A DNA stretch of 64,000 nt from an uncultured Methylococcaceae bacterium (lineage in GTDB: Bacteria; Pseudomonadota; Gammaproteobacteria; Methylococcales; Methylomonadaceae). Below the pieces are notes generated by a model. The model made no database searches, was not told where the DNA came from, and was given only the letters and a program-made list of their open reading frames with translations. A program made the position numbers and the translations under genes. Shown here piece after piece: positions 25,160-47,356 of the stretch (position 1 is the stretch's first letter; every line of letters begins with the position of its first letter). The DNA lies in NCBI GenBank assembly GCA_903908165.1, contig CAIVQX010000173.1:8528-72527 (forward strand). The letters run 5' to 3'.

Positions 25160-25744
25160 ATGACTGACTATTTAAGCAATCAATCAGCTCTAAACAAGCG
25201 TATAAAGCTAATTATAGAGAACGAGAACATTGATAATCACCGTTCTGTTATCAATAATATTGCTGATCAACTCGCAATTGATACGTTAACAGTCGCAGCC
25301 GCACTCCTACATTTATCCCAAAACATTGAAGACACATTAACGCCTTCATCATTAAAAAACCAAACTATTGAGCCACAAGCATTAACACATCACCGCACTT
25401 TAAATATTAAAATGGTGCGTTATCGTTTGGATGTTGGCAGTCAGCATCTTATCACCTTGGAACAACTAAAAAGAACATTGGTTGAGGAGTCAGGTGTCGA
25501 TAAAAACAATATTAATAATATTAAAATCCAAAGCTTGTATACGTTGATAGAACTTCCCGACGAAATGCCTGCTGATATATTTCAGCATTTAAAATCTGTT
25601 GAAATTAATCAAAGAAAACTCGATATAAAACGAGTAAAAACACGGAACAATAAGAGACGAGGAAATAATCACTTACGCCGAACTCGTAAACCCGATTATA
25701 ATCCCCCAAGTAATCAAGTAACTTGTAATAAAATAGCAGACTGA
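25160..25744 (+). CDS. Stand-alone DbpA-type RNA-binding domain protein (DeaD C-terminal-like, no helicase core)
   Basis: AAALLHL linker, MVRYRLDVG...LVEESGV...I.I...YTLIELP, basic Arg/Lys-rich tail; no DEAD motif. Confidence 0.7.
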   Translation: MTDYLSNQSALNKRIKLIIENENIDNHRSVINNIADQLAIDTLTVAAALLHLSQNIEDTLTPSSLKNQTIEPQALTHHRTLNIKMVRYRLDVGSQHLITLEQLKRTLVEESGVDKNNINNIKIQSLYTLIELPDEMPADIFQHLKSVEINQRKLDIKRVKTRNNKRRGNNHLRRTRKPDYNPPSNQVTCNKIAD

Positions 25745-29355: not shown

Positions 29356-30432
29356 TTAATGAATAGTAAGAATATCTAAAGCACTTAAAGGATCACTTCG
29401 ATATTCAATAAGCTCTTTTCCTTGCTGAACAATGAAAAGTGCAGAGATTTTTTTCACATTGGCAATTGCCGTACCATCTTTGTATCCTAAGCAAAGCAAA
29501 GCAGTAGACCACGCATCTGCTATAGTAGGATTTTCGTGAATAACAGTGACAGAAACCAAGTCATGAGTAACCGGTCGACCCGTCCGAGCATCAAGAATAT
29601 GACTATAACGTTTTCCCTTGTCATCAAAATAATGCCGATAAGTACCTGACGTCATGATAGATATGGGTAATATTTCCGGCATACTAATAATTTTTTGCAT
29701 AACCTGTTCCCCAGGCAAAGGCCTTTCAACTGCAATTCGCCATACTTTTGAATCGGGCTTGTGACCTCGAGTTTTTAACTCACCACCAATCTCAACCAAA
29801 TAATTTTTAATACCATTTTTTTCTAAGATATCACTAATACGTCCCACGCTGTAGCCTTGAGCAATAGATGATAAATCAACTTTTAAATCCGATTGATTTT
29901 TACGCAAATGTGTTTCATCCACTATCTCCAGCTTTTCCATACCAATTTGGGATAAGGTTTTAAGAATTGTACTTTCATCAGGAATAGTTAATTTATCTCC
30001 TCGAAACCCCCATAACTCAAATAAAGGCTTAATCGTTAAATCATAACAACCCTCACTGGCCTGATGAACCGCCTGAGCCACGCGAACTAACTCTATAATC
30101 TCTTTACCTACTTCTTGGCTTTTGATATTTTCAACACTATTGAATACCTCAATAACAGAATCAGGTCTATAATTGGATAGTGTTTTATCAATAAAATTAA
30201 ATTCACTAATGATACTGGCTTCAATATCCTTACTATTAACTGACAACTCGGACCAATAGCTGATATGGTAAGTCGTTCCTTGCGCAGCACCTTCAAGCTT
30301 TTGAATAGAAGGATCAGAACAACCTGTAAGTAAGCTAAAAAACAGCAAACAACTATAATATGCAGGTAAACTAACCCAGTGTTTTTTAAAATATACCAAG
30401 ATTCCTATCCATTTAGGTTTATTCTTTATCAT
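29356..30432 (-). CDS. apbE: FAD:protein FMN transferase ApbE (lipoprotein)
   Basis: Lipobox LLTGC, GTTYHI, DLSSIAQGY, VEIGGE, TSGTYR, SHILDARTG, ADAWSTAL. Confidence 0.92.
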   Translation of the reverse strand: MIKNKPKWIGILVYFKKHWVSLPAYYSCLLFFSLLTGCSDPSIQKLEGAAQGTTYHISYWSELSVNSKDIEASIISEFNFIDKTLSNYRPDSVIEVFNSVENIKSQEVGKEIIELVRVAQAVHQASEGCYDLTIKPLFELWGFRGDKLTIPDESTILKTLSQIGMEKLEIVDETHLRKNQSDLKVDLSSIAQGYSVGRISDILEKNGIKNYLVEIGGELKTRGHKPDSKVWRIAVERPLPGEQVMQKIISMPEILPISIMTSGTYRHYFDDKGKRYSHILDARTGRPVTHDLVSVTVIHENPTIADAWSTALLCLGYKDGTAIANVKKISALFIVQQGKELIEYRSDPLSALDILTIH

Positions 30433-30782
30433 AAAAAAGGTTTACCTAACTTTTATTACAGAAGGTCCTTAAAATCAAGTTGCACATTATCTACATACAT
30501 CATAAACATGGATACCTATTTACTTATTAAGATATATAGACAATTTAGATATGATTAATCTGCAATCCTTCTTACGAAAACCATGATCAATACTTCTAAA
30601 CATCCTGGATGTATCTGTAGCCAATTTCATTTAAAAGCAACTTAATTCGACCATTATAATCTCAAATAGTTATTCGTTTATTAAAAATACAATTTTTAAA
30701 TTATATCCATACAGATCTTTGGTTCAAAATCGACTGGGTCGTTCAATAATAAGCGTATTATATTTTTCAGGCTAAGCTAAAA

Positions 30783-33700
30783 ATGAATAATTTATTAGGT
30801 AACAAGCCACCGAAACAACTCATTTCCGGCATCTTTTTATTGTGTTTGTTAATACTAGCCTTCATGGTAATAAGTGAACTTTTGGTTCCGCTCATTTGGG
30901 CAGTCATTATAAGCTATATCATGTGGCGCCCTTATCAATGGCTTAGATATCAACTTAATGATCACGCTACGCTAAGTTCTGCATTAATGACAATATTTAT
31001 TGCAACGGTCATTTTTTTGATCCTCTACTGGCTCCTTGCCATGTTACAAAATGAAACGCAAACAGCTTATCAAAGCTTGGCTATTAACCTAAATCAAGAA
31101 TCCTATCAATTTCCTAACTTCTTACTAAACACACCATGGCTAGGTCATTATTTACAAGAATGGCTTGATCGACTCACTCACGACCGTGCAGAATTAATAC
31201 TACAATTTGCTAATTGGGCAAAGCAATGGCTAGGTGGCTTAGCGAAACTCATCGGTGACATAGGATACAACGTTATAAAGCTGGGTATTATTCTTGTCAC
31301 CGTGTTTTTTTGTTTTCGAGATGGCAAAGAGATAATTAACCAATTACAACAAGGATTGGTTCAATTTCTTGGTCAACATCAGCATATCTATATTGAAGCT
31401 GCTTGTAACACAACACGTGCAGTGGTTTACGGCCTGATCCTTGCTGCTCTTGGACAAGGTTTAGTTGCAGGACTTGGGTACTATATTGTTGGCATTCAAG
31501 CCCCTATTCTTTTTGCTGCAATTACGGCTCTTTTAGCCATAATACCAATGGGCGCCACTTTGGTTTGGCTACCCACTGGTATTGCGCTCATTCTAACAAA
31601 TCAACTGGGAGCCGGTGTAGGACTTTTACTCTGGGGTTTATTAGCAGTCAGTACCATTGATAATATCATTCGTCCGTTAATCATTAGTGGGACGAGTAGA
31701 ATTCCTTTTCTACTTGTATTATTTGGTGTACTTGGTGGGCTGAAGGCCTTTGGTGCGATTGGTCTATTTTTAGGACCCATTATTTTGGCCGTCCTACTTT
31801 CTGTTTGGCAAGCTTGGTTAAAGCTTCAACAAGAAACATCTTATTCAAATTCACCAGCTCAACATATATGGCATAACTTAACTGCGATTCAAGCAATTAA
31901 TTATCTAACATCTAATCAAACAACTGGATTAAGTCAATTGGTAGCCATGGAACGTTGGCATTATTATGGCCCTAACCAACTTATAGAAAAAAAACCACGT
32001 TCACTCTTGAATTTATTTTTCTCCCAATTTGAAAGTTTTCTTATTTTGGTTCTCATTGGCGCGGCTATATTATCTGCTGCTATTGGAGATTTACAAGATG
32101 GCCTTACCATCTTGATAGTTGTGGTAATTAATGCCTTACTCGGGTTTTACCAAGAGTTTAAAGCTGAAAAATCCTTATACGCACTAAAAAAAATGTTCGC
32201 ACTCAAAGCCAAAGTTCGTCGTGATGGTGGCATTAGTGAACTACCAGCCGATCAACTTGTGCCCGGGGATATTATCATTCTTGAGGCTGGCAACAAAATA
32301 CCTGCAGATGGTCGTATTATTACAGCACATACACTGGAACTAGATGAGTCATCACTAACAGGTGAATCAATTCCAGTTTCAAAGCAATCACAACCACTCA
32401 AAGAAATTGCAACACCTCTCGCTGAAAGAAGTAACATGCTTTATATGAATAATGTCGTTACCCGTGGACGTGCAGAAATGCTGATAACTGCAACAGGTAT
32501 GAATACTGAGATTGGCAAACTTGCGCAGCTACTTTCTCAACCGGAAGAACGAATCACACCACTTCAAATCCAACTTGATAACTTGGGTAAACGTCTTATC
32601 CTGATTGTACTTACAGTCATTGTAATCTTATTTATCAGTGCCTTATTGAGGGGCGACCCACTGATAGAAACCGCATTCAGTACCATTGCACTGGCTGTTG
32701 CCGCAATTCCAGAAGGTTTACCAGCTGTCGTTACTGTGACTTTGGCACTCGGAATGCATCGCATGGCTCATCAACATGCTATCGTTAAACGTTTGGCCGC
32801 AGTAGAAACACTGGGATGCACTACCGTTATCTGTTCTGACAAGACAGGTACGCTAACCGTCAACCAAATGACTGCAAGATCAATTTTTTACAATAATCAA
32901 ACTTATACTGTCAGCGGTGAAGGTTATTCGTTGATCGGAGAAATTTTTCCTCCTATTTCTCCAAATAATCTTTCAACGCTTCTATTACCACTGGCACTTT
33001 GTAACAACAGTCACATACAAAATAGTCAAATTGTAGGCGATCCAATGGAAGATGCTTTATTGGTGCTTGCTGCCAAAGGCGGCATTGTTAGCGAACTGGC
33101 TAACAATCAATTCCCCAGATTTGCCGAGATACCGTTTGATGCAGCTCACAAATTTATGGCCACATTTCACCATTATGAAAATGAAGTAAAAATATTCATA
33201 AAAGGTGCGCCTGAAATATTACTTGAGCTGTGTCATTCAGTTCGAGACACTGAACATCAAAATCTGCGACCATTAGAACCAGACGAAATATTAAGACAAA
33301 ACAACATAATGGCTAGCAGTGGCTTGCGTGTAATTGGAGTAGCAGTTCGTTCAGTTCCCGCAGAGACTGTAGAAGCTAATAGCGACCTATTTCAACACAT
33401 CAAGGATCTCACTTTTATTGCTCTAATAGGACTTATGGATCCTCCCAGACCAGGAGTTCAGGAGGCTATTAAGCTCTGCCAACAAGCCGGTATTGCAATC
33501 AAGATGATTACTGGTGACCAAAAAATTACAGCATTGGCAATTGCAAAAGAATTAGGGTTAATGGGTGAAGTAGCAGATGGTCGAGACTTACTTCAATATA
33601 ATGATAATACACTAGCTCAACGTATAAATAATATCAGCGTATTCGCTCGCACCACACCGGAACAAAAAGTACTTATTATTGAAGCTTTAAAAGCGGATGG

Positions 33701-34553
33701 ACACATTGTTGCTATGACAGGTGATGGTGTTAATGATGCACCTGCACTAAAAAATGCCGACATTGGTATTGCAATGGGCATAAGTGGAACTGATGTTGCA
33801 AGGGAAGCTGCAATGATGATATTAACAGATGATAATTTTGCCACTATAGTGAATGCGATTAAAGAAGGACGTGGGATCTATGATAATATGATTACGTTTG
33901 TACGATTTCAACTTTCCACTAATATAGGCGCAATATTGACTGTAGCTATTGCTCCACTTCTAGGAATGCCCATTCCTTTTACTGCAGTGCAATTATTATG
34001 GATCAATATTATCATGGATGGCCCACCAGCCATGTCACTAGGTGTTGATCCAACACGAACCAATAGTATGGACGAAATGCCCCGCAATCCAAAAGCGCGT
34101 ATACTTTCACTCCGCCGTTTTGGTAATTTATTTAGTTACGGATTAACAATGGCAATAGGTACACTAGGAACTTTATATTTTAGCTTACAAACTGGAACAC
34201 TCAATCATGCAAAAACCCTAGCTTTTACGACCTTCGTATTATTTCAGGTATTTAATGTTTTTAATGCTCGCGCTGAAAAAAACAGCACATTTAACAGTCA
34301 CTTCTTTGCTAACAAAATGCTCTGGCTTGCTATTGTCTCAGTGATACTATTACAAATATTAGTAATAAACTGGACACCTGCGCAAGCAATATTTCAAACT
34401 ACTGCATTAACAGCGCATGATTGGTTAATTGCTACTGGAGTCGCAATGTCCATTCTTTTTCTTGAAGAAATTCGGAAACTTATAAAAGGAATCATATTCC
34501 AACCAATAAATGCAACCAATAAAACAGTTACTATAAATTCAAAACATGAATAA
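30783..34553 (+). CDS. Fusion: AI-2E family transporter (aa 1-~345) plus type II cation-transporting P-type ATPase
   Basis: N-terminal part has IDNIIRPLII and GLFLGPIILA. C-terminal part has TGES, PEGL, DKTGT, KGAPE, DPPR, TGD, GDGVNDAPAL. Confidence 0.9.
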   Translation: MNNLLGNKPPKQLISGIFLLCLLILAFMVISELLVPLIWAVIISYIMWRPYQWLRYQLNDHATLSSALMTIFIATVIFLILYWLLAMLQNETQTAYQSLAINLNQESYQFPNFLLNTPWLGHYLQEWLDRLTHDRAELILQFANWAKQWLGGLAKLIGDIGYNVIKLGIILVTVFFCFRDGKEIINQLQQGLVQFLGQHQHIYIEAACNTTRAVVYGLILAALGQGLVAGLGYYIVGIQAPILFAAITALLAIIPMGATLVWLPTGIALILTNQLGAGVGLLLWGLLAVSTIDNIIRPLIISGTSRIPFLLVLFGVLGGLKAFGAIGLFLGPIILAVLLSVWQAWLKLQQETSYSNSPAQHIWHNLTAIQAINYLTSNQTTGLSQLVAMERWHYYGPNQLIEKKPRSLLNLFFSQFESFLILVLIGAAILSAAIGDLQDGLTILIVVVINALLGFYQEFKAEKSLYALKKMFALKAKVRRDGGISELPADQLVPGDIIILEAGNKIPADGRIITAHTLELDESSLTGESIPVSKQSQPLKEIATPLAERSNMLYMNNVVTRGRAEMLITATGMNTEIGKLAQLLSQPEERITPLQIQLDNLGKRLILIVLTVIVILFISALLRGDPLIETAFSTIALAVAAIPEGLPAVVTVTLALGMHRMAHQHAIVKRLAAVETLGCTTVICSDKTGTLTVNQMTARSIFYNNQTYTVSGEGYSLIGEIFPPISPNNLSTLLLPLALCNNSHIQNSQIVGDPMEDALLVLAAKGGIVSELANNQFPRFAEIPFDAAHKFMATFHHYENEVKIFIKGAPEILLELCHSVRDTEHQNLRPLEPDEILRQNNIMASSGLRVIGVAVRSVPAETVEANSDLFQHIKDLTFIALIGLMDPPRPGVQEAIKLCQQAGIAIKMITGDQKITALAIAKELGLMGEVADGRDLLQYNDNTLAQRINNISVFARTTPEQKVLIIEALKADGHIVAMTGDGVNDAPALKNADIGIAMGISGTDVAREAAMMILTDDNFATIVNAIKEGRGIYDNMITFVRFQLSTNIGAILTVAIAPLLGMPIPFTAVQLLWINIIMDGPPAMSLGVDPTRTNSMDEMPRNPKARILSLRRFGNLFSYGLTMAIGTLGTLYFSLQTGTLNHAKTLAFTTFVLFQVFNVFNARAEKNSTFNSHFFANKMLWLAIVSVILLQILVINWTPAQAIFQTTALTAHDWLIATGVAMSILFLEEIRKLIKGIIFQPINATNKTVTINSKHE

Positions 34554-35868
34554 TATTTTTTTAATTATTATTGCCTTACTACTGGTAATGCTCAATGGTT
34601 TTTTTGTGGCAGCAGAATTTGGTCTTGTTAAACTGCGTCAGACACGAATTCAGCAGATTGCCAAAACTCAAGGTTGGAAAGGACGTATTTTAGCAATAGT
34701 TCATTCTAAACTTGATGCCTATTTATCCGCTTGCCAACTAGGAATCACATTAGCCTCCCTTGGCTTGGGCTGGGTTGGTGAGCCAGCCTTTGCCAGCATA
34801 TTGGAACCGACATTTAGCGAACTTAACATAACCTCGCCAGAATTAATACACGCTATTTCATTCACTTGTGCATTTTCTATTATTTCATTTTTACATATCG
34901 TTGTCGGTGAGCTTGCGCCAAAATCAATGGCTATCCGAAATCCCGAAAAAATCGGACTATGGAGTGCAGTTCCACTCTATGGATTTTATTGGTTAATGTT
35001 CCCTGCTATCTGGTTACTTAATTCCAGTGCGAATTTGTTATTAAAAGTTTTTACTTTAGGTAACAGTCACGGTAAGGATGCCCATTATTCAGCTGACGAA
35101 CTTAAACTAATTTTACGAGATAATAGTCAAGATAATCGCTTCACACGTGACGAATGGAATACATTAGCAAAGACACTTGACTTCAGCACCCTAGAAGTTT
35201 CTGACTTAATGCGTCCAACCCATGAAATGGTGGCATTACATCGGAATAACTCCTTAAAAACAAACTTAAACATCATTTCTGAAAAGCGCTTTAGCCGTTA
35301 TCCTTATTTCGACACCAATGAAATTGATGTTCTAGGTATTATTCATCTAAAAGATTTGTTCTTTGCATTGCAAATAGACAAGGAAATTGAAGATCTTCAT
35401 CAATTTTTAAGACCTATCCAATATATTTCACCTGATACACCAGCACTCGACTTGTTCCGTTACTTCCGCATGGGTGCATCTCATTTCTCTGTTATTGGCC
35501 AAATAGGAGAAAAACCACAAGGCTTCATTACTCTAGATAATTTGTTAAGCGCCATGGTCGGTGAAATCCAAGATGAATTTAGACAAAATAATAATGATTG
35601 GAACCGCCTTGATGATGGCAGCCTGATTGTTAAAGGTAGCTTGCCAATATTCTCACTGGAACGAATTTTAGGTATCGATATTGAAAATGAAGAACTGGAA
35701 TTAGAAGATGAAGTATCTATTGGCGGACTGATTATGTCTAAACTTCAAGATATACCCGTTGAAGGCCAAAAAATAACATTCAATCAATTTGAAATCATCA
35801 TCAAAAAAATGAAGGGACCTCAAACTGTTCTAGTACAAATATACCCTAATATTGTTGGCATTCACTAA
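34546..35868 (+). CDS. CNNM/CorB (hemolysin-family, DUF21-CBS-CorC) Mg2+/divalent cation transporter
   Basis: NGFFVAAEFGLV, QLGITLASLGLGWVGEP, GELAPK, SRYP, CBS pair, C-terminal CorC/HlyC domain. Confidence 0.88.
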   Translation: MNNIFLIIIALLLVMLNGFFVAAEFGLVKLRQTRIQQIAKTQGWKGRILAIVHSKLDAYLSACQLGITLASLGLGWVGEPAFASILEPTFSELNITSPELIHAISFTCAFSIISFLHIVVGELAPKSMAIRNPEKIGLWSAVPLYGFYWLMFPAIWLLNSSANLLLKVFTLGNSHGKDAHYSADELKLILRDNSQDNRFTRDEWNTLAKTLDFSTLEVSDLMRPTHEMVALHRNNSLKTNLNIISEKRFSRYPYFDTNEIDVLGIIHLKDLFFALQIDKEIEDLHQFLRPIQYISPDTPALDLFRYFRMGASHFSVIGQIGEKPQGFITLDNLLSAMVGEIQDEFRQNNNDWNRLDDGSLIVKGSLPIFSLERILGIDIENEELELEDEVSIGGLIMSKLQDIPVEGQKITFNQFEIIIKKMKGPQTVLVQIYPNIVGIH

Positions 35869-35948: not shown

Positions 35949-37388
35949 ATGCATAGAACCATCCGAGGCAAATTATTTTTAACTTTTCTAGTAACAACTC
36001 TTTTTGTTGTTTTTGGAATGTATATTTTTATGCGCAGTTCTCTAAATCAAGGGTTTTCTGCATTGGTAGAATCAAGGCAACAGGAGCAAGTAAAAATTCT
36101 AATTGAAGGTCTTACTGACTATTATTCGAACAACCAAAGTTGGAACAATCTGTCTGGTGATAAAAAAAAATGGATTGATCTTTTATGGAAATCTAATCCA
36201 CAGCATCATGACTACCCTTCACCTTGGATTACACAAGCACTAACAGAACCCAATAACTTTTGGCCACCAGCCATACCTGAGCTGCCACCAAAAAAGCTTT
36301 TTATGCCCCTCGGATTACGCGCAATGTTATTAAACGCAGATAAGACGGTTATTTTTGGTCGTAATGAAGCTATCCATCAATTATCTTTGCATCCTATCCG
36401 TTACAAGGAAAAAATTATTGGTTTCCTGGGTCTCTTGCCAGGTAAGCTATACAATCAGGCCAGTGATATTGAATTTATTGAGAAACAATCTAAATCTTTT
36501 ATTTGGATAGCGTTATTAATGATTTTTTTGTCTGCTAGCCTTGCATTATTACTCGCTTATACCTTAGGTCGACCCATTAAGCGTATAACAACTGCAATCA
36601 AAGCTTTATCTCTGGGGCGTTATAATATAAGACTACCCATAGATTCTAGAGATGAACTTGGGCAATTAGCTCGTGACTTTAACGACATGGCCGCTGCACT
36701 GGAGCAATCAGAACAAGCTCGCCGGCGCTGGGTAGCTGATATTTCTCACGAACTTCGGACACCCTTATCTGTATTACGTGGTGAATTAGAAGCACTTCAG
36801 GATGGAATACATCCATTAACCTCCTCAGCAATTGACTCTCTGTTTGGGGATGTTATGCGACTCCATCGCTTAACTGAAGATCTTTATCAATTATCATTAT
36901 CTGATAAGGGTGCTTTAAGTTATCACAAAGATTATCTAGATCCAGTAGAGATTTTAAAAGATGATCTCACCACTTTACAACTGAAATTCCAAGAAAAAAA
37001 TATTCAGATAAAATGGGTTAACGACATACCAAGCTCTATATTTATTTATGCTGACCCAGATCGTTTATCACAACTTTACCGAAATTTACTTAATAATAGT
37101 GCATCTTATACCGATAATAACGGTCAATTAGTAATCTCTATTTTTCAAAGATCCTCTAATATAGTGATCAACTTTTCTGATAGTGAACCAGGTGTGCCTG
37201 AACAAGAATTATCTAAGCTATTTGATCGATTTTATCGCCTAGAAAGTTCTCGTAATCGTCACCACGGTGGAGCAGGTCTAGGATTAGCTATTTGCAGGAA
37301 TATTGTTGAAGCGCACAATGGTAATCTTCAAGCTAATACCTCTCCTCAAAAAGGTCTTACTGTTTGCATAGAATTTCCAATTGAATGA
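35949..37388 (+). CDS. baeS: BaeS-like sensor histidine kinase
   Basis: Two TM helices, HAMP (DELGQLARDFN), H-box DISHELRTP, LLNN, DSEPG, GLGLAIC. Confidence 0.85.
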   Translation: MHRTIRGKLFLTFLVTTLFVVFGMYIFMRSSLNQGFSALVESRQQEQVKILIEGLTDYYSNNQSWNNLSGDKKKWIDLLWKSNPQHHDYPSPWITQALTEPNNFWPPAIPELPPKKLFMPLGLRAMLLNADKTVIFGRNEAIHQLSLHPIRYKEKIIGFLGLLPGKLYNQASDIEFIEKQSKSFIWIALLMIFLSASLALLLAYTLGRPIKRITTAIKALSLGRYNIRLPIDSRDELGQLARDFNDMAAALEQSEQARRRWVADISHELRTPLSVLRGELEALQDGIHPLTSSAIDSLFGDVMRLHRLTEDLYQLSLSDKGALSYHKDYLDPVEILKDDLTTLQLKFQEKNIQIKWVNDIPSSIFIYADPDRLSQLYRNLLNNSASYTDNNGQLVISIFQRSSNIVINFSDSEPGVPEQELSKLFDRFYRLESSRNRHHGGAGLGLAICRNIVEAHNGNLQANTSPQKGLTVCIEFPIE

Positions 37389-38074
37389 TGAAGCATATCC
37401 TGATTGTAGAAGATGAATTAAAATTGGCTCTTCTGCTAGCCGATTATTTGAAAAATGCTGGCTTCAACACTACTTGTCTAAGTAATGGACTAGAAGTAGT
37501 ATCTTGGCTTAAAATAAACTCAACTGAGCTTGTATTGCTAGATTTAATGTTGCCGGGTAGAGATGGTCTGGATATTTGTCGTGACATCCGTAATTTCAGC
37601 TTAGTACCAATTATAATAATAACCGCACGTATTGAAGAAATAGACCGCTTACTTGGGCTCGAGTTAGGGGCAGACGACTATATCTGCAAACCTTTTAGTC
37701 CACGTGAAATGGTACTTCGAGTTAAAGCTATAATCCGCCGACTTGAGGTACAAACAGATCCAGTTATTAATAGTCTTTTGAGACTGACACCTGATAGCTT
37801 TCGTGTATTTTCTAGAGAACGAGAAATAGAATTAACTAGTGTAGAGTTTTGTTTGTTACAAGCACTATATAATCAACCCGGACGCATATTATCGCGTTCA
37901 AAATTAATGGACTTAATCTATCAGGATCAACGGATTGTCTGTGATAGAACTATTGATAGTCATATTAAAAAACTAAGAAAAAAACTGTTCGATTTATTAC
38001 CAGAGGAAGAATTAATTCACTCTGTTTATGGAGCTGGCTATCGTTATGAGCCACAAAAAAGAGTTATTGAATGA
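37385..38074 (+). CDS. baeR: BaeR-like OmpR-family response regulator
   Basis: ILIVEDE, LLDLMLPG, GADDYICKPFSPRE, RTIDSHIKKLR, YGAGYR. Confidence 0.88.
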   Translation: MMKHILIVEDELKLALLLADYLKNAGFNTTCLSNGLEVVSWLKINSTELVLLDLMLPGRDGLDICRDIRNFSLVPIIIITARIEEIDRLLGLELGADDYICKPFSPREMVLRVKAIIRRLEVQTDPVINSLLRLTPDSFRVFSREREIELTSVEFCLLQALYNQPGRILSRSKLMDLIYQDQRIVCDRTIDSHIKKLRKKLFDLLPEEELIHSVYGAGYRYEPQKRVIE

Positions 38075-38078
38075 TTGT

Positions 38079-38106
38079 TCCACAATATTTACACATTTCG
38101 TCCAAA
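38079..38106 (+). promoter_or_regulatory. Candidate OmpR-family tandem direct-repeat site upstream of mdtA
   Basis: TCCACA (38079) / TACACA (38090) / TCCAAA (38101) at an 11-bp period. Confidence 0.4.
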
Positions 38107-38317
38107 TTATTTGCTTCTTTCATATTTAAAGTAAATATAAAGAAAAAAATCAATATACTGAAATTCATAAGAAATCTATAAAAACAAAAATTTTATGCCT
38201 ATTACACTATTTTTTACTAGTTTATTTTTTAAACGACATGATCATCTCACTGCATTTTTGAAATGAAATATATTTCGTAACATAATGTAATTATGCGCTA
38301 TTTAACAAAGCCAAACG

Positions 38318-39571
38318 ATGGACAAATCAATAATGCTTGGACAATTAAAAAAAAGGATAAAAAAATATTTTTCCTGGAAAATAGGAAGTGCATTAGCTCT
38401 ATTATTGATATTAGCATTTTTTGTCATCAAATGGGTTAGCGAACCAACAGAAGGAGATAGTAAAGACTCTAAAAAATCAACCGAACCTCAGATTGCAGTT
38501 GTCGCAGAAGCAGCGACCCAAGGAGATTTCCCCGTATATCTAAACGCCTTAGGCACCATAACAGCACTACGTACAGTTACTGTAAAATCACGTGTTGATG
38601 GGGAACTTATCCATGTCGCTTTCAAAGAAGGTTCATTAGTAACTGCAGGTGATTTACTCGCCGAAATTGACCCACGAGCATTTCAGGTACAATTAATGCA
38701 GGCCGAAGGTCAGTTACGAAGAGACCAAGCATTATTAAAAAATGCGCAATTGGATCTAGTTCGTTACAAAACACTACTAGAACAAGATTCTATTGCTGCC
38801 CAACAAACACATACTCAACAAGCTGTGGTAGAACAACATCAAGGAACTGTTGAAATTGATCGCGGCCTTGTTGCGGATGCTAAACTCCAACTGAGTTATG
38901 CAAAAATCACAGCACCCATTACAGGAAGACTAGGATTGCGCTTAGTCGATCAGGGCAATATGGTGAAAGCTTCCGATACCAACGGACTGGCTGTTATTAC
39001 ACAAATCAGTCCAATAGCAGCTATTTTTACACTACCTGAAGATAATTTACCAGCCGTCATGCAACGATTTAAATCTGGTGAAACCCTATCAGTTGAAGCC
39101 TATGACCGTGGAGGCAACAACAAGATTGCTAAAGGACAACTATTAGCCGTCGACAACCAAATTGATACAACCACAGGAACTGTAAAGCTAAAAGCTCAGT
39201 TTACTAATGAAGACAATGTTTTATTTTCAAATCAATTTGTTAATATCAAAATTAAAATGGATACACTCAACTCTGTAACGATTATTCCCACCTCGGCTAT
39301 TCAAAGAGGAACAATTGGTTCATTTGTTTATGTCGTAAAAGATGATCATACCGTAAAGTTACAAACAGTAAGTTTGGGGCCTATTGAGGGTGAAAAAACT
39401 GCCGTATTAAAAGGGCTTAACGCTAATGAATTAGTTGTGGTAGATGGTGCAGACAAACTTCGTGATAAGGTGAAAGTTAAACTGATTACCCATGGGTCGA
39501 CATCTTCTGGTGGAACACCGACACTTACTGACAAGCCACTCAATAATAATTCATCAAATAAGAAAAAATGA
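38318..39571 (+). CDS. mdtA: RND membrane fusion protein MdtA
   Basis: TVTVKSRVDG, ITAPITGRLGLRLVD.GN, DNQIDTTTGTVKLKA, LFSNQFVN. Confidence 0.92.
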   Translation: MDKSIMLGQLKKRIKKYFSWKIGSALALLLILAFFVIKWVSEPTEGDSKDSKKSTEPQIAVVAEAATQGDFPVYLNALGTITALRTVTVKSRVDGELIHVAFKEGSLVTAGDLLAEIDPRAFQVQLMQAEGQLRRDQALLKNAQLDLVRYKTLLEQDSIAAQQTHTQQAVVEQHQGTVEIDRGLVADAKLQLSYAKITAPITGRLGLRLVDQGNMVKASDTNGLAVITQISPIAAIFTLPEDNLPAVMQRFKSGETLSVEAYDRGGNNKIAKGQLLAVDNQIDTTTGTVKLKAQFTNEDNVLFSNQFVNIKIKMDTLNSVTIIPTSAIQRGTIGSFVYVVKDDHTVKLQTVSLGPIEGEKTAVLKGLNANELVVVDGADKLRDKVKVKLITHGSTSSGGTPTLTDKPLNNNSSNKKK

Positions 39572-39627
39572 GTATTATTTGAACGTTCTCTTAAATTATC
39601 TTTAGCTCCGACCAAGATACCAAGATC

Positions 39628-42600
39628 ATGAACCCCTCACGGCTATTTATCTTACGTCCAATTGCTACATCACTTGTAATGCTGGCTCTCTTGCTAGTAG
39701 GTATAATTGCCTATCGGGAATTACCCATATCTGCTTTACCTCAAGTTGAATACCCCACAATTCAGATAATAACACTATATCCTGGCGCTAACCAGGAAGT
39801 CATGACCTCAGTAATCACCTCACCATTGGAACGGCAATTTGGTCAACTACCTGGCTTAAATCAGATGTCGTCTTCAAGTTCTGGAGGTGCTTCAGTAATA
39901 ACTCTTGAGTTTAACTTAAATCTGAATCTGGACATTGCAGAACAAGAAGTACAAGCAGCTATCAATGCGGCTAACAATTTCCTTCCGGCTGACCTGCCCA
40001 TGCCACCCATATACAATAAGATTAATCCGGCAGATGCACCTATCTTGACGCTAGCAGTTACTTCAAAAACACTGCCTTTATCTAAAGTTGAAGACCTAGT
40101 TGACACTAGACTGGCTCAAAAATTTTCACAATTGTCTGGAGTAGGATTAGTAACAATTAGTGGCGGACAGCGCCCCGCTGTTCGTATTCAAGCTAACCCT
40201 AGTGCATTAGCAGCTTATGGCTTAAGCTTGGAAGATCTGCGTATTGCTATAGCCAATGCTAATGTCAATCAACCCAAAGGAATGTTTGACGGTCCGGCAC
40301 GATCAGCCATTATAGATGCTAATGATCAACTTCAATCAGCCGCAGAATATAAACAACTAATCATTGCATATCGTAATAATAGACCTGTATATTTATCAGA
40401 CATTGCTGATGCCATTGACGATACTGAAAACGTAAAATTAGCCGCTTGGGCAAATGGTGTATCCGCTGTTATTGTCAATATTCAGCGCCAACCAGGCAGT
40501 AATGTCATCGAAGTTGTTGATCGCATCAAACAACTCTTACCTAAGTTGCAAGAAGCCCTTCCCAGTGCTCTAGATGTTGAATTATTAACTGATCGCACCC
40601 ATACAATTCGGGCTTCAATTCAAGATGTCCATAAAGAACTACTTATCGCACTTGTACTGGTAGTGCTCGTTATCTTTCTGTTTTTACGAAATGTTTCTGC
40701 CACCGCCATTCCCGGAATAGTCGTACCACTCTCTTTGATTGGTACTTTTTCCATTATGTATCTTGCGGACTTTAGCATTAATAACCTAACACTCATGGCA
40801 CTTACTATAGCCGCCGGCTTTGTAGTTGACGATGCCATCGTTGTTATCGAAAACATTACCCGCTATATTGAACAGGGAGAAACACCTAAAAACGCTGCTC
40901 TCAAAGGTTCCGAACAAATTTCTTTCACCATTATTTCATTAACTTTTTCATTGATCGCCGTTTTAATCCCTTTATTATTTATGGGAGATATAGTGGGTCG
41001 ACTTTTTCGAGAATTTGCAATTACACTGGCAGTAGCGATCCTTATATCTGCAATTATTTCGCTGACTCTAACACCAATGATGTGTGCAAAGATGTTAAAA
41101 CCTTTATCCGAAGAGAAAAAAGGTCGATTTTATTTAACTAGTGGAAGATTTTTTGACCACATAACTGAAAGCTATTCCAAAATATTGGATTGGGTATTAG
41201 AACATCAAAGAGCGACACTCCTAGTTGCTCTTACAACATTTCTACTTACCCTATTATTATATTTAATCGTACCAAAAGGTTTCCTACCGATTCAAGACAC
41301 TGGAATCATTCAAGGCATCTCTGAAGCACCAGAATCCATTTCATTTGACGCCATGTCTAAACACCAACAAGCCTTAAGCAAAATAATCTTGGAAGATCCT
41401 GCTGTCGAAGATATTTCCTCTATTATTGGCGTTGACGGAACCAATCGCACACTCAATACCGGACGATTCATAATAACCCTAAAACCAATAGAGTTACGAA
41501 AAAATAACGCCATAGAAGTTATCCAAAGGTTACAAAACAAAATTGCTGGACTTGAGGGTATAAAATTATTTCTTCAACCTGTTCAAGACCTAACTATAGA
41601 AAATCGTGTTAGCCGCAGTCAGTACCAATTTACGTTAGAATCAGCAAATCGCGAAGAATTGAGTTATTGGACATCACTTCTCGTCGAAGAACTATCTAAA
41701 AAAACTCAGTTTTCTGATATTAACAGTGACCTTCAAGATCATGGGCTTCAAGCTTTCGTAAAGATTGATCGAAGTACAGCAAGCAGAATGGGTATTAGTA
41801 TTGCAGCTATTGATAACGTTTTATACGATGCCTTTGGGCAACGATTTATTTCCAGTATTTTTACACAATCTAACCAGTATCGGGTGGTTCTTGAAGTTAA
41901 GCCTGAATTTCGACAAAACTTAGAGAACTTGAGAGAGATTCGAATACCGTCCTCAAATGGTGCTCAAGTTCCATTATCAACCATAGCTAGCATTTCAGAG
42001 CATACAGCACCTCTTGTTACCAATCGTCTAGGTCAATTTCCATCAACAACTATTTCTTTTAACTTAGCTTCTAATACCTTTTTAGATGAGGCTATTGATG
42101 CTATCGAAATAAGTAAACAAAAAATAGGGTTACCACTGAGTGTACAAGCCAATTACCAAGGCGCGACTTTAGCATTTAGCTCTTCACAATCCAACACTTT
42201 ATGGCTAATTCTAGCCGCCATAATAACCGTTTATATTGTGCTGGGTGTTCTTTACGAAAGCTATATTCATCCAATCACAATTCTCTCAACATTACCATCG
42301 GCCGGTGTAGGTGCACTTCTTGCTTTGATGCTTTCAGGTAACGATTTAGGAATTATTTCAATTATCGGCATCATTCTACTGATAGGTATTGTCAAAAAAA
42401 ATGCGATTATGATGATAGATTTTGCGCTAGAAGCCGAGCGCAAACAAGACCTCTCTCCCAAAGAAGCAATACATCAAGCCTGTCTCCAACGTTTTCGTCC
42501 AATCATGATGACTACTATGGCTGCGTTATTAAGTGCCCTTCCTCTTATGCTAGGAACAGGAGTAGGATCAGAACTACGACACCCTCTCGGCGTTACAATG

Positions 42601-42723
42601 GTCGGCGGCTTAATCCTGAGCCAAATACTTACTCTGTTCACAACTCCAGTTATTTATCTATATTTCAATAAACTAGAGCGTAAGCTCAAAGGGACTCTTG
42701 AGATTGATCAGGATTTTCTGTGA
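39628..42723 (+). CDS. mdtB: RND permease MdtB
   Basis: [55 protein letters not shown]. Confidence 0.92.
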
Positions 42724-45700
42724 ATTTATCAGCGTATTTTATCTATCGTCCAATCGCCACCTCGCTCCTAACACTGGCAATCAGTTTAGCGGGATTAATC
42801 GCCTTTTTTCAATTACCTATCGCACCACTCCCTCAAGTTGATTTTCCAACTATTTCTGTTCAAGCTTCCTTGCCAGGGGCAAGTCCGGAAATAATGAGTT
42901 CTTCAGTAGCAACTCCATTAGAACGTGAACTTGGACATATAGCAGGCATTTCAGAAATGACTTCTGCAAGCTCTATGGGCAGTACCAATATTATGTTGCA
43001 ATTTGATATTGATCGCGACATTGACGGTGCTGCCCGAGATGTGCAAGCTGCGATTAATGCAGCAAACAACTTGTTACCAGGTAATTTGCCTAATCGCCCA
43101 AGCTATAGGAAAATTAACCCAGCAGATTCACCCATTATGATTCTTGCTTTGACATCAGAAACTATGTCACGTGGTCAACTTTATGATGCAGCCTCAACAA
43201 TTCTTTCGCAAAAAATATCACAAGTTCAAGGGACTGGGCAAGTTACTGTAGGTGGCAGTGCACTACCTGCAATAAGAATTCAACTTAATCCAGTCGCTTT
43301 GGCCAAATATGGTATTGGCTTTGATGAAGTGAGATCTACTATTGCGGCGAGTAATATCAATCGACCTAAAGGAACAATTGAAAATACAACTCAACAATTA
43401 CCAATTTACGCCAACGATCAAGCTAAAACTGCTAGTGAATATTTACCACTCATAGTCACCTATAAAAATGGCGCAGCCATACACTTATCGGACATAGGAC
43501 AGGCTCTAGACTCTGTAGAAGACCTAAGATCAGCCGGACTCAAAGACAACCAACCCGCTATTTTATTAATCATAAATAAACAAGCCGGCGCTAATATCAT
43601 AGAAACAGTTGATAAAATTAAATCACTGTTTCCACAATTACAGGCATCTATTCCTAGTGCCTGTAAACTATCAATGGTTTTGGATAGATCCATAACCATT
43701 CGCGCCTCACTTCATGAAGTTGAACGCAGTCTTTTAATTGCTATAGGATTGGTGATCCTTATAGTTTTTTTATTTCTACGAGACCTTCGCTCCTCTATTA
43801 TTCCCATCATCACTATACCTGTATCCTTACTAGGCACTTTTGGTGTAATGTATTTATGCAACTACAGTTTGGATAATTTATCATTAATGGCACTGATTAT
43901 TGCCACTGGTTTTGTTGTTGATGATGCAATTGTTGTACTTGAAAATACATTAAGGCATTTAGAGCATGGAAACTCACCACGTGAAGCCGCTTTAAAAGGT
44001 GCTAGTGAAGTTGGCTTTACAGTATTAACTATAAGCTTATCGCTTATCGCTGTTTTTATCCCCATTTTATTAATGGGGGGAATCGTGGGGCGTCTTTTTC
44101 AGGAATTCGCAGTCGTACTCTCAACTGCCGTTCTTATTTCTTTAGTCATCTCACTGACTACTACACCAATGCTTTGCGCACTGTGGTTAAAACCCTTAAA
44201 AACAAAAACACCCAATCATCTTTACTATTTTGCTGAACGATATACCAATCATTTACTGACTGGCTATGAACGCACACTTCGATGGGCTTTACGTAACGGT
44301 TTAATAGTAATGTTGTTATTATTGTGTACGATAGGCTTAAATATCTACCTCTATACAATAGTACCAAAGGGTTTCTTCCCTATTCAGGATACAGGAAGAC
44401 TTTCAGGAACCATTCAGGCAGACCAGAGCATATCATCGCAAGCCATGCAAAAAAAACTGGCTGATTTTGTATCAATATTGCACCAAGATCCCGAAATTGA
44501 AACTGTTATTGGTTTTACTGGGGGGCAACGCAGCACGAATAGTGGACAAATGTTTGCAACACTTAAACCCTTAGAAGAAAGACATTTAAGCGTTGATAAA
44601 CTGATGTCACGACTCAGAAAAAAACTTGAGAATGAACCAGGAGCTAAGCTCATATTACAGTCACCCCAGGATTTGAGAATCGGAGCACGTGGTTCTTCTG
44701 CTTTATTTGAATATTCCCTACAGGCAGATAATTTAGAAGAACTTCGTATTTGGGTTCCTCAAATAGTCAAAGCCTTGTCACATCGTCATGAATTAGTAGA
44801 TGTAAATACCAACCAGCAAGATCATGGACAACAAATTTCACTCCAGATTGATAGAGACCTTACCAGCAGGCTTGGACTCAGTCAGTCGCTTATTAATTCC
44901 ACACTCAACAATGCCTTTGGACAAAGACAGATTTCTCTAATTTACAATGATCTCAACCAATATCGTATCATTATGGAAGTCTCTCCAGAATTTTCACAAA
45001 GTGCTGAAACATTAAAAAATATGTATATCAATATCCCACAAACCCTGCCATTAAACTCTGCGGGACAAATACCGTTTTCAACCTTTGTCACTTACACAAC
45101 AAACAACACTCCATTATCTGTCAACCATCAAAGTCAGTTTCCTGCTGGAACTATCTCATTCAATCTTAAACCTGGCACATCCTTATCTACAGCAAGCCAA
45201 GCACTTAAAGAAACAATGGACAATCTTGGTGTACCTTCATCCATACACGGCAGCTTCCAAGGAACTGCGAAAGCGTTTGAAGAGTCCTTGAAAAATCAAC
45301 CTTGGCTAATTCTAGCTGCTTTGGTGTCAATTTATATTGTCCTTGGTATTTTATATGAAAGCTATATCCATCCTTTGACCATTATTTCCACTTTACCATC
45401 TGCAGGCATTGGTGCAATTCTGGCACTGCTTATTTGCAAAACTGAATTTAGCATCATTGCAACGATTGGCGTTATTTTATTGATCGGTATCGTAAAAAAG
45501 AACGCTATTATGATGATAGATTTTGCCTTAAATGCTGAACGTACAATGTCTATGAGTCCAAAAGATGCAATTTTCAATGCTTGTTTGATGCGTTTTCGTC
45601 CCATTATGATGACTACTTTTGCGGCCCTTCTTGCCGCATTACCGCTTGCACTTGGATCAGGTTACGGATCTGAATTACGACGACCTTTGGGCATAGCAAT

Positions 45701-45848
45701 AGTCGGTGGTCTTTTATTTAGCCAGGTTCTAACTTTATATTCAACTCCGGTTATATATCTTTATCTAGATCGTTTTCAGACTTGGTGTCGGCGCAAACTT
45801 CTGCGAAACACATCGACACCCTTACCGAATCCGACAAATCTGCTTTGA
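42720..45848 (+). CDS. mdtC: RND permease MdtC
   Basis: GTG start overlapping the mdtB stop; [33 protein letters not shown], second permease of an mdtABC-type operon. Confidence 0.92.
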
Positions 45849-45877
45849 GTACATTTCTCTGACATTCTGAATTATTT

Positions 45878-47356
45878 ATGATCACCTACTTAATAAGGTT
45901 AATTACTTTTCTCTACTTCATAATTGTTGGAGGTTGCAGCGTAGGGCCAGATTACAAAAAACCAAGCAATGCTTTTCCTAATACATTTAAAGAAATTAAA
46001 GGTTGGAAACAAGCTAATCCGCGTGACATTGAGCTTTCTGATAAATGGTGGGAGATATTTAAAGATCCGCGCCTGAATGCCCTTGAACAACAAATCAACA
46101 TTGGCAATCAATCAATCGCACAAGCAGAGGCACAATTCCGACAGTCACAGTCGATGGTACAAACTGCAACTGCTGCTTATTTCCCAACCGCTAATGCTTC
46201 TGCGAGTGCGAGCCGATTCAAGGCGGTAAGTGGAGAGACTAAAGCTGTAAGTGGCGTAAAATATTTATTCAATACTGTGTTAAGTGTCGCCTGGGAGCCA
46301 GACATATGGGGTAGTGTTCGCAGACAAGTTGAGTCCAGTAGAGCCAATGCACAAGCCAGTGCAGCGACTCTGCAGGCGTTACGTTTATCAACACAAGCAA
46401 CATTAGCTCAAGACTATTTTCTGCTAAGAGTATTTGACGCACAGATCAATCTTTTAAACGATACCGTTAAAACTTATCAAAAAACATTAACTATCACAGA
46501 GAACCGTTATGCCGTAGGTATGGCGGCCAAGTCTGAAATTGTCCAAGCTGAAACTCAACTCCAATCAGCACAAGCTCAAGCTATTAATATAGAAGTACAG
46601 CGAGCAAAAGTAGAACATGCTATAGCGATTTTAATTGGCAAAACTCCCGCAGAGATATCTATTCCTGTTGGTTCATTAAACACTTTTCTGCCAGCTATAC
46701 CCGTCAGTATACCGTCAGAACTATTAGAGCGAAGACCGGATATCGCAATCGCTGAAAGACAAGCCGCTGCAGCTAATGCACTTATTGGAGTTGCTAAAGC
46801 GGCTTATTTTCCAACACTAAATCTTGCCGCTAACAACGGTCAACAAAACAATAGTGTTTCAAACTTAATGAATTCGGCATCACGTTATTGGACCTTAGGT
46901 CCTGCTGCATTTGCAATTCCTCTTTTTGATGGCGGATTTCGGGGCGCTCAAATGCAACAAACTATTGACGCTTATGACGCATCGGTGGCAGCTTATCGCC
47001 AAGCGGTTCTAGTCAGTTTTCAAGAGGTCGAGGATAATCTAGCTGCTCTACGTATACTTGAGCAGGAAATGTTGGTTCAAAACAAGGCGGTTGAATCTGC
47101 CCAAAAAGCTGTCCTTCTAACAACTAACCAATATAAAGCCGGAACAATCAGTTATCTCAATGTAATGATCGATCAGGCGGCAGCGCTTGCGAATGAAAAA
47201 ACGGCCGTTGATCTTCAAGGTCAACGCCTTACTGCTGCCGTTCTTCTAATAAAAGCACTGGGTGGTGGTTGGAAATCGTCTGTTCTTCCGAGTGAAGAAG
47301 ACATAAGTGGTGAAATTAAATGGCTACAGTTTTTACCTATTCCGTTAAGTAAATAG
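45878..47356 (+). CDS. NodT/OprM-family efflux outer-membrane lipoprotein
   Basis: Lipobox VGGC, SVGPDY, WEPDIWG, LLERRPDI, LIKALGGGW. Confidence 0.92.
   Translation: MITYLIRLITFLYFIIVGGCSVGPDYKKPSNAFPNTFKEIKGWKQANPRDIELSDKWWEIFKDPRLNALEQQINIGNQSIAQAEAQFRQSQSMVQTATAAYFPTANASASASRFKAVSGETKAVSGVKYLFNTVLSVAWEPDIWGSVRRQVESSRANAQASAATLQALRLSTQATLAQDYFLLRVFDAQINLLNDTVKTYQKTLTITENRYAVGMAAKSEIVQAETQLQSAQAQAINIEVQRAKVEHAIAILIGKTPAEISIPVGSLNTFLPAIPVSIPSELLERRPDIAIAERQAAAANALIGVAKAAYFPTLNLAANNGQQNNSVSNLMNSASRYWTLGPAAFAIPLFDGGFRGAQMQQTIDAYDASVAAYRQAVLVSFQEVEDNLAALRILEQEMLVQNKAVESAQKAVLLTTNQYKAGTISYLNVMIDQAAALANEKTAVDLQGQRLTAAVLLIKALGGGWKSSVLPSEEDISGEIKWLQFLPIPLSK

Follow-up and report, generated by a model that had tools for sequence, protein, structure and literature searches.

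Recurrent in-frame fusion of an AI-2E transporter to a complete P-type ATPase in Methylococcales methanotrophs, with a likely role in divalent-cation transport

Introduction

In a 64,000-nt stretch of DNA from an uncultured Methylococcaceae bacterium (contig CAIVQX010000173.1, positions 8,528 to 72,527 of the forward strand; hereafter the window), one open reading frame (ORF) encodes a protein whose N-terminal part belongs to the AI-2E transporter family and whose C-terminal part is a P-type ATPase. The locus raises two questions: whether the two parts are truly one protein, as an earlier note made from the sequence alone had proposed, and what a pump joined to a second transporter might do. 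The AI-2E family is large, with members in bacteria, archaea and eukaryotes. To our knowledge the physiological substrates of its members are essentially unknown, the record holding only an autoinducer-2 (AI-2) export phenotype and one Na+/H+ antiporter. Fused proteins of the kind described here are already in public databases; as an architecture they are real, recurrent and uncharacterised.

Results

An uninterrupted junction between two complete modules

The ORF call and Pfam both agree with the earlier description of this gene as a single 1256-codon frame with a complete AI-2E permease, a short polar linker and an intact P-type ATPase (Table 1). The AI-2E_transport domain (PF01594, TC 2.A.86) is matched at full length, with residues 17–345 aligned to profile positions 5–326 of 327 (E 2e-37; 129.5 bits against a cut-off of 34.3). 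In the second half, Cation_ATPase_N covers residues 363–431, E1-E2_ATPase 472–664, Hydrolase 683–993 and Cation_ATPase_C 1063–1234; PF00690, PF00122, PF00702, PF13246 and PF00689 all exceed their cut-offs, which together represent the full set of N, A and P domains plus a 10-helix membrane domain. The ATPase half begins at WHNLT, as predicted, with 31869 as its exact first position. The absence of an in-frame ATG, GTG or TTG between the two halves also held: the start codons nearest the junction are a TTG at codon 335, inside the last AI-2E helix, and a TTG and an ATG at codons 386 and 389. Met389 is not conserved in 99 fused homologues. An internal start for a separate ATPase was rejected because the linker has no canonical start codon and no Met is conserved.

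The junction is equally continuous outside this assembly. An 801-nt stretch spanning it recurs, almost unchanged, in no fewer than 20 DNA runs that belong to about 12 independent studies of lakes, rivers and estuaries. At the junction, where an assembly join or a stop codon in the linker might have been hidden, DNA contigs from four of these studies run on with 0 gaps, indels or stops. Their only difference from the window across the junction is a T>A change at 31851 that converts Ser357 of the linker to Thr, a polymorphism seen in both environmental DNA and RNA. Metatranscriptome contigs from 4 runs in 3 studies also span the junction, likewise free of stops and indels (31748–32313, 31759–32397, 31594–31994 and 31708–31943), with the proviso that carry-over of DNA into such libraries is possible.

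Distribution and naming of the fused proteins

The window itself belongs to a methanotroph of the Methylobacter/Crenothrix group within Methylococcales. The architecture recurs across genomes, isolates included. A full-length search returned at least 99 further fused proteins of at least 1150 amino acids, 58–84% identical to the window protein, each with PF01594 and every domain of the ATPase. Their sources are Methylobacter sp. S3L5C, M. tundripaludum, Methylovulum miyakonense, M. psychrotolerans, Methyloprofundus, Crenothrix and many metagenome-assembled genomes (MAGs). Some of the genes lie on complete genomes of 4.7–4.9 Mb, and cultured Methylobacter and Methylovulum are among the carriers. 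The 90%-identity protein cluster of the window protein has 62 members, several of them full-length copies from different sources. In a profile-based survey of this AI-2E subfamily, 20 of 80 species-representative loci were fused, all 20 in Methylococcales.

Databases name these proteins 'calcium-translocating P-type ATPase, PMCA-type', 'HAD-IC family P-type ATPase' or 'Ca2+-transporting ATPase', and never name the AI-2E half. Dozens of stand-alone AI-2E proteins of about 352 amino acids (P0008, P0010, P0011, P0016 and P0022, for example) are called 'Ca2+-transporting ATPase' or 'P-type Ca2+ transporter type 2C' by JGI. Since the fused proteins are named only as Ca-ATPases, that name has apparently leaked by annotation transfer from the fusions to hundreds of stand-alone AI-2E proteins in metagenomes, a systematic mis-naming. 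Our literature searches found no paper that describes an AI-2E/P-type ATPase architecture or links AI-2E proteins with P-type ATPases, CNNM or Ca/Mg; a passing mention in Rettner & Saier 2010 is possible, and InterPro and TCDB architecture tables were outside their scope. This agrees with the earlier statement that no characterised protein of this architecture is known, common as it is, unremarked, in sequence databases. PMC9475539 refers to Rettner & Saier 2010 on larger AI-2E homologues that carry ATP/GTP-binding, GAF or TPR domains at the C-terminus.

Constraint on the two halves and on the linker

For the ratio of nonsynonymous to synonymous substitution rates (dN/dS), the least saturated pair was the window and locus L004, with values of 0.14 (AI-2E half), 0.12 (ATPase) and 0.20 (the 12 linker codons); linker values reached 0.6–0.8 in pairs further apart. 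Both halves are under equal purifying selection. TGES, the dephosphorylation loop of the A-domain (residues 526–529), DKTGT with the phosphorylated Asp (residues 686–690), PEGL and the M6 N-x-x-x-D motif are present in all 100 fused proteins, and TGDGVNDAPAL, the hinge of the P-domain (residues 979–989), in 96 of them. All 17 residues that are invariant in the AI-2E subfamily occur in the window protein, and their retention across the 100 fused proteins is 92–100%.

The linker shows only 16% identity across the same 100 proteins. The junction segment, in which E, P, A, D, Q and S abound, is 17 to 28 residues long, and every change in its length preserves the frame. An AlphaFold2 model of residues 10–1209 built with 97 homologues had a mean predicted local distance difference test score (pLDDT) of 66.8 and a predicted template-modelling score (pTM) of 0.42. 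Linker pLDDT was below 50, which fits a flexible tether and says nothing on any interface. Because the linker is unconserved and variable in length, and because the fused and split states have been switched several times (see below), a tether rather than a rigid coupler is the best-supported reading of these sequences.

The C-terminal tail of 22 residues is likewise unconserved, with 3% identity across the fused proteins. In one metatranscriptome run (X30), a 13-nt insertion, CAACCAATAAATG, follows position 34499 and is accompanied by 8 substitutions; it would shift the frame of the last 18 or so codons, within this tail.

A second fusion in Methylocystis

A protein with the same order of modules was found in three Methylocystis genomes, one of them the isolate M. 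suflitae NLS-7 (L025:4799-9541, L026:6836-11731 and L027:6857-11770). A single frame of about 1580–1640 codons encodes an AI-2E module, a variable linker of about 22 residues, a complete P-type ATPase starting at 'PWH...', an extra transmembrane helix and a membrane-fusion-protein (MFP) domain of HlyD type. Its ATPase half shares 38% identity with that of the window and 59–63% with stand-alone Planctomycetota pumps. For the ATPase half of the window, identity to stand-alone Methylococcales pumps is 63–69%, and the two AI-2E halves share 33% identity. Because the parents differ, the two proteins represent independent fusion events that produced the same order. At L025 a Na_Ca_ex gene lies about 2.5 kb upstream of the fusion. 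The domain order suggests that the Methylocystis pump, bearing its own periplasmic adaptor, may be linked to an outer-membrane channel; we know of no such arrangement in the literature.

The ATPase half resembles single-site Ca2+ pumps of the SPCA/PMR1 type

The best NCBIfam model for the ATPase half is the PMR1-type (P2A2) TIGR01522, at 784.8 bits marginally below its equivalog cut-off of 798.3. The PMCA-type model (P2B, TIGR01517) scores 250 bits less, 531.2, and exceeds its own lower cut-off of 507.05, which accounts for the PMCA-type names in databases. Where P2B pumps would have a calmodulin-binding autoinhibitory terminal domain, this protein has AI-2E at the N-terminus and 22 unconserved residues at the C-terminus. 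Among solved structures human SPCA1 comes closest, at 611 bits, followed by Listeria LMCA1 at 556 bits; SERCA scores lower. M4 reads IPEGLPAV, M6 reads WINIIMDGPPA and is identical to that of human SPCA1, and M5 has Ala at the position of the SERCA site-I Glu, as do SPCA1 and LMCA1. Site II is present (the M4 Glu of PEGL, the M6 Asn and Asp) and site I is absent. Because its ion site follows this single-site pattern, the ATPase half is most likely a catalytically intact efflux pump for Ca2+, possibly also for Mn2+.

The AI-2E half belongs to a subfamily related to YdiK

The AI-2E half on its own matches YdiK in PDB (7ot9) at E 5e-21, and the profile of its subfamily does so at 2e-64. Against the YdiK equivalog NF008216 it scores 118.2 bits where the cut-off is 305, and by this measure it falls in a related subfamily rather than among YdiK orthologues. 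TqsA was not found even with the profile and is too distant for alignment onto the proposed AI-2 site.

The Na+(Li+)/H+ antiporter that the earlier note had cited as a precedent is UPF0118 of Halobacillus andaensis, the one AI-2E protein with demonstrated transport of inorganic ions (PMC7221264, PMC5379678). We compared its signature (E179-R182-K215-Q217-D251-R292-R293-E296-K298-S307, Motifs A–D) with the AI-2E half by motif position. The equivalent of D251, the indispensable Asp of Motif C, is Ala (AIIPMG versus DFxPIxG), and in place of the Motif D sequence IRRTVEPK the AI-2E half has IDNIIRPL. Assignment to this antiporter group was rejected, and since its signature motifs are lacking, the precedent does not transfer.

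In cryo-electron microscopy structures, TqsA has both termini in the cytoplasm and a C-terminal, two-hairpin, elevator-like transport domain; TqsA and YdiK, which share the fold, are pentamers held together mainly by their N-terminal scaffold domains (PMC9475539). A cytoplasmic C-terminus is also what fusion to the cytoplasmic N-terminus of an ATPase requires. The natural fusions therefore support the cryo-electron microscopy topology, at least in the YdiK-like branch, and can serve as natural topology reporters.

Gene neighbourhoods connect the AI-2E subfamily with cation transporters

The fusion gene is flanked on one side by a divergent ApbE/MMPL pair and on the other by a gene for a CNNM + CBS + CorC_HlyC protein, whose ATG overlaps the fusion stop codon by 8 nt (34546–34553, ATGAATAA). 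This overlap suggests translational coupling and makes it probable that the two genes form one operon; metatranscriptome contigs cross the boundary, some extending from the 3′ end of the fusion gene into the CNNM gene. At L001–L003 the two genes are 30–50 nt apart, with no overlap. CNNM is a conserved downstream partner at these three loci, at L011, at L015 and elsewhere.

Locus L015 has the same MMPL/ApbE and CNNM flanks with the parts unfused: a separate AI-2E protein of 352 amino acids (68% identity), a gene of the Na_Ca_ex (CaCA) type and, in convergent orientation, a P-type ATPase gene, the product of which, at 42% identity to the fused ATPase, is a paralogue. L018, L107 and L115 are similar to L015. 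At L015 an MFP gene directly follows CNNM, which may be compared with the MFP domain fused in the Methylocystis protein. In Beta- and Gammaproteobacteria, P-type ATPase, CaCA and CNNM genes are recurrent neighbours of unfused members of this AI-2E subfamily. The same kinds of gene are found in other orders: CNNM then AI-2E, adjacent (L023, Thauera L151, L166 and L172); CNNM, AI-2E and ATPase (Thauera L159 and L160, with an ATPase 54% identical to that of the window); Na_Ca_ex then AI-2E (L154, L158); ATPase and AI-2E divergent (Caballeronia L162, L164); and AI-2E then ATPase, adjoining on the same strand with a stop codon between them (Rhizobiales PAR1, L035).

Counting loci with at least 3 kb on both sides, 12 of 27 in Methylococcales are fused, 2 have an unfused ATPase within 8 kb, 6 have CNNM nearby and 1 has Na_Ca_ex nearby; for the 23 loci from other Proteobacteria the corresponding numbers are 0, 4, 4 and 3. 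We put the chance of such a pump lying within 8 kb of a random gene at <1%, a rough estimate rather than a computed background. Based on these neighbourhoods, it is likely that the AI-2E half and the pump share a role in divalent-cation transport. The association is not universal, since many stand-alone copies have no cation transporter nearby.

Fusion and splitting within Methylococcales

Fused and stand-alone forms are interspersed in the AI-2E tree: the fused L008 groups with four stand-alone Methylobacter proteins, and the fused Crenothrix polyspora protein with the split Crenothrix L013, each with 100% support. The ATPase tree was rooted on the L015-type paralogue. Its deepest branches within Methylococcales are those of fused proteins (support 90 and 96); nested among the fused forms are at least 4 well-supported clusters of unfused ones, and Thauera, with its unfused neighbourhood, is the sister group. 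M. tundripaludum carries both a fused and an unfused ATPase, 82% identical. A likely path suggested by these trees runs from gene neighbours through an early fusion in the clade to repeated loss or splitting. As the trees are neighbour-joining trees with a weakly supported backbone, the number of fusion and fission events is uncertain.

In nearly all unfused pumps of the clade (P0384–P0401), the conserved WH.LS is preceded by one additional transmembrane helix, then a basic patch, then a variable linker; by sequence these are 11-helix P2-type ATPases. Because they carry this helix, the N-terminus of the A-domain is membrane-tethered throughout the clade. We considered whether the helix is a relic of the last AI-2E helix. 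This was rejected for 14 of 16 unfused pumps (z ~0); the exceptions are P0395, which supports it (z 7.0), and P0401, which does so weakly (z 2.6).

Features of the locus and its surroundings

The features of the fusion gene and its immediate flanks are collected in Table 1.

Table 1. Positions of the fusion gene, its modules and motifs, and adjoining features in the window
Feature	Position	Strand	Remarks
Candidate sigma-70-type promoter, TTAAAA-18 nt-TATAAT	30631..30660	+	Consensus scan
Fusion ORF	30783..34553	+	1256 amino acids; ATG start, TAA stop
AI-2E (YdiK-like) transporter module, residues 1-350	30783..31832	+	Pfam PF01594, PDB YdiK 7ot9
DNxxRP family motif (DNIIRP) in AI-2E module	31659-31676	+	Last AI-2E helix ends SVWQAWLKLQ
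Cytoplasmic linker, residues 351-362, ETSYSNSPAQHI	31833..31868	+	12 residues, polar
Complete P2-type (SPCA/PMR1-like) cation ATPase, residues 363-1234	31869..34484	+	Pfam, NCBIfam, PDB
ATPase motif TGES	32358-32369	+	
ATPase motif PEGL (M4)	32709-32720	+	
ATPase motif DKTGT	32838-32852	+	
ATPase motif TGDGVNDAPAL	33717-33749	+	
ATPase motif STNIGA (M5)	33915-33932	+	
ATPase motif WINIIMDGPPA (M6)	33999-34031	+	
C-terminal tail, residues 1235-1256, and TAA	34485..34553	+	Unconserved
CNNM/CorB-type (CNNM + CBS + CorC_HlyC) putative divalent-cation exporter	34546..35868	+	Pfam

The promoter in Table 1 lies in a 350-nt intergenic region shared by the fusion gene and the divergent ApbE gene. It is a weak candidate: the consensus scan for promoters and terminators returned no more sites than expected from shuffled sequence, and no notable internal terminator. 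An Rfam search of the 5′ leader (30300–30900) gave no match at E<=1, and thus no riboswitch that might have revealed the metal; across the whole window no RNA reached its gathering score.

Directly downstream, 35949–47356 holds a complete BaeSR/MdtABC-like cluster (a HAMP histidine kinase, an OmpR-type regulator, a membrane-fusion protein, two AcrB-type RND pumps and an outer-membrane factor). Elsewhere in the window, an ORF of 194 amino acids (25160–25744) consists solely of DeaD dimerisation and DbpA RNA-binding domains, with no helicase core, and has a counterpart of 197 amino acids in the same place at L015. A DabA (PF10070) gene followed by a 627-amino-acid ORF, possibly DabB (14290–18776), would be a pair for inorganic-carbon uptake, and a pyruvate:ferredoxin oxidoreductase gene lies at 54657–58295; all of these represent ordinary chromosomal context.

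Discussion

The earlier proposal of a true fusion, rather than of two genes joined by the loss of a stop codon, stands. It is carried by the recurrence of the architecture in more than 100 protein clusters, from isolates as well as MAGs, by linker length variation that is always in frame, by equal purifying selection on the two halves, by transcripts across the junction and by the independent fusion in Methylocystis. Mis-assembly, loss of a stop codon through sequencing error, or decay of two neighbouring genes into a pseudogene would be compatible with the many close AI-2E homologues that are separate 352-residue proteins, and with one relative, a long-read MAG (L009/L137, CAWBLO010000031.1), in which the region is broken by frameshifts. 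Against such an artefact stand the same junction in at least 20 runs, the contigs and transcripts that cross it, the 99 further full-length proteins, complete isolate genomes among them, and dN/dS values of 0.12–0.14. For practical purposes the artefact is refuted, and we give it next to no probability. In the broken relative the fused gene is spread over at least 5 frames, with the neighbouring MMPL and ApbE genes appearing as single full-length matches; this could reflect long-read indel errors or a true pseudogene.

As to what the protein does, we consider it on balance probable that it is a genuine two-module inner-membrane protein in which a Ca2+ (and perhaps Mn2+) pump is tethered to a still-functional AI-2E transporter, the two forming one divalent-cation module, likely built round an AI-2E pentamer. 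In a freshwater Methylococcales methanotroph, the ATPase module would move Ca2+, possibly Mn2+, from cytoplasm to periplasm in exchange for protons. The YdiK-like AI-2E module would be a transporter in its own right within the same module of divalent-cation homeostasis, and the co-transcribed CNNM/CorB exporter would be its third member. A short, flexible, acidic and proline-rich tether would connect the two fused modules on the cytoplasmic side. The fusion would have arisen from neighbouring genes, its selective benefit being equimolar synthesis and forced co-localisation rather than any obligate mechanical coupling. Given that N-terminal scaffold domains hold the solved AI-2E proteins together as pentamers, the pumps would probably be arranged around such a pentamer.

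Several observations weigh against this proposal. The ions of the pump are assigned from homology and gene neighbours only, and the AI-2E half lacks the signature of UPF0118, the one ion-transporting branch of its family. About half of the Methylococcales loci, and most of those elsewhere, have a stand-alone AI-2E gene with no cation transporter nearby, and an AI-2E neighbour was found at 0 of 69 stand-alone relatives of the Methylocystis-type ATPase. The inter-domain geometry of the AlphaFold2 model is not confident, and the backbone of the trees is weak. PhoA data place the C-terminus of UPF0118 in the periplasm (PMC7221264), contrary to the cryo-electron microscopy topology (PMC9475539), and YdiK interacted with AI-2 in vitro (PMC9475539).

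Other functions can be weighed on the same evidence. The AI-2E module may have ceased to transport and may act as a membrane anchor, an oligomerisation scaffold or a regulatory N-terminus that restrains or positions the A-domain of the pump. The pentameric state of solved AI-2E proteins would suit this, as would the clade-wide membrane tethering of the A-domain N-terminus, with AI-2E or with a single helix and basic patch; it is also well established that N-terminal extensions regulate other P-type ATPases. A mere anchor, however, would need neither the 17 invariant residues and the DNxxRP motif nor a dN/dS as low as that of the pump, and a single helix is evidently enough for anchoring. Moreover, fused and stand-alone AI-2E sequences interleave at similar divergence, so that no relaxation of the fused copies is apparent. 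The retained invariants and the low dN/dS argue that the module is not a mere anchor, and we regard this alternative as unlikely, if the most serious of those considered here. Export of AI-2 or another small metabolite, with a fusion that has no meaning beyond co-expression, appears distinctly improbable. TqsA is a reported AI-2 exporter, and YdiK, which showed the in-vitro interaction mentioned above, is the closest solved relative; yet AI-2 transport in vitro is undemonstrated for any AI-2E member, TqsA included (PMC9475539), and the AI-2E half scores far below the YdiK equivalog cut-off. Repeated, shuffled linkage to three families of divalent-cation transporters in several proteobacterial orders, together with two fusions, would also be hard to obtain by chance.

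Direct energetic or allosteric coupling, in which movements of the A-domain drive or gate AI-2E transport and make a secondary-type transporter ATP-dependent, is attractive in that the tether ties the most mobile part of the pump, the N-terminal segment of its A-domain, to the point where the AI-2E transport domain ends, and in that a fusion of the same order arose twice. An unconserved, proline- and acid-rich linker that spans an 11-residue length range and is predicted to be disordered would nevertheless transmit force poorly. The ATPase also retains its own complete ion site, and the two parts have come apart more than once during evolution and exist elsewhere as individual genes in a different order. 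These separations and the flexible, unconserved linker disfavour obligate mechanical coupling, and to direct coupling, energetic or allosteric, we attach very little probability. A bolder version is also very doubtful: a new transport machine in which five P-type ATPases ring a pentameric AI-2E core, their A-domains gating or driving the AI-2E elevator, with the Methylocystis form connected through its HlyD-type adaptor to an outer-membrane channel. The concentration of the architecture in methanotrophs would then suggest that such a machine could handle Ca2+ or lanthanides for periplasmic methanol dehydrogenases. If true, the Methylocystis version would be the first envelope-spanning efflux system powered by a P-type ATPase.

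The proposal of a tethered divalent-cation module has wider implications. Two independent fusions, together with the shuffled association of AI-2E genes with those for Ca-type P-type ATPases, CaCA exchangers and CNNM/CorB exporters, make this a Rosetta-stone case, from which follows the testable hypothesis that one AI-2E subfamily serves divalent-cation homeostasis. For the P-type ATPase field, the proteins offer a natural pump covalently bound to a probably pentameric partner, and a clade in which the N-terminus of the A-domain is always membrane-tethered.

Comparison with known systems places the fusion protein as follows. Like YdiK (7ot9) and TqsA (7nb6), its AI-2E half is a full-length PF01594 protein that keeps the DNxxRP motif and the glycine-rich hairpin region, with a C-terminus on the cytoplasmic side; unlike them it is covalently joined to a pump, and it is neither a YdiK equivalog nor close enough to TqsA to align. 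UPF0118 of Halobacillus andaensis belongs to the same Pfam family, but its own C-terminus is reported in the opposite orientation and its signature motifs are absent here. The Methylocystis fusion shares a methanotroph host and the order AI-2E, linker, (P)WH and ATPase, and differs in an ATPase from another subclade, a distant AI-2E module, and a C-terminal transmembrane helix with a periplasmic MFP domain. With SPCA1/PMR1 and LMCA1 the ATPase half has in common the full domain set, all catalytic motifs and the single ion site formed by M4 PEGL and M6 N-x-x-x-D, whereas the fusion resides in a bacterial inner membrane and bears an AI-2E N-terminus of about 350 residues and many helices. Extra N-terminal parts are familiar in P-type ATPases, including the MA/MB helices of P1B, the Ma/Mb helices of P5 and the autoinhibitory N-terminus of plant ACA pumps. 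As in those proteins, the addition precedes the A-domain, and the unfused paralogues here have a single extra helix; in the fusion, however, the added part is a whole, independently folding transporter of another superfamily, under transporter-like constraint.

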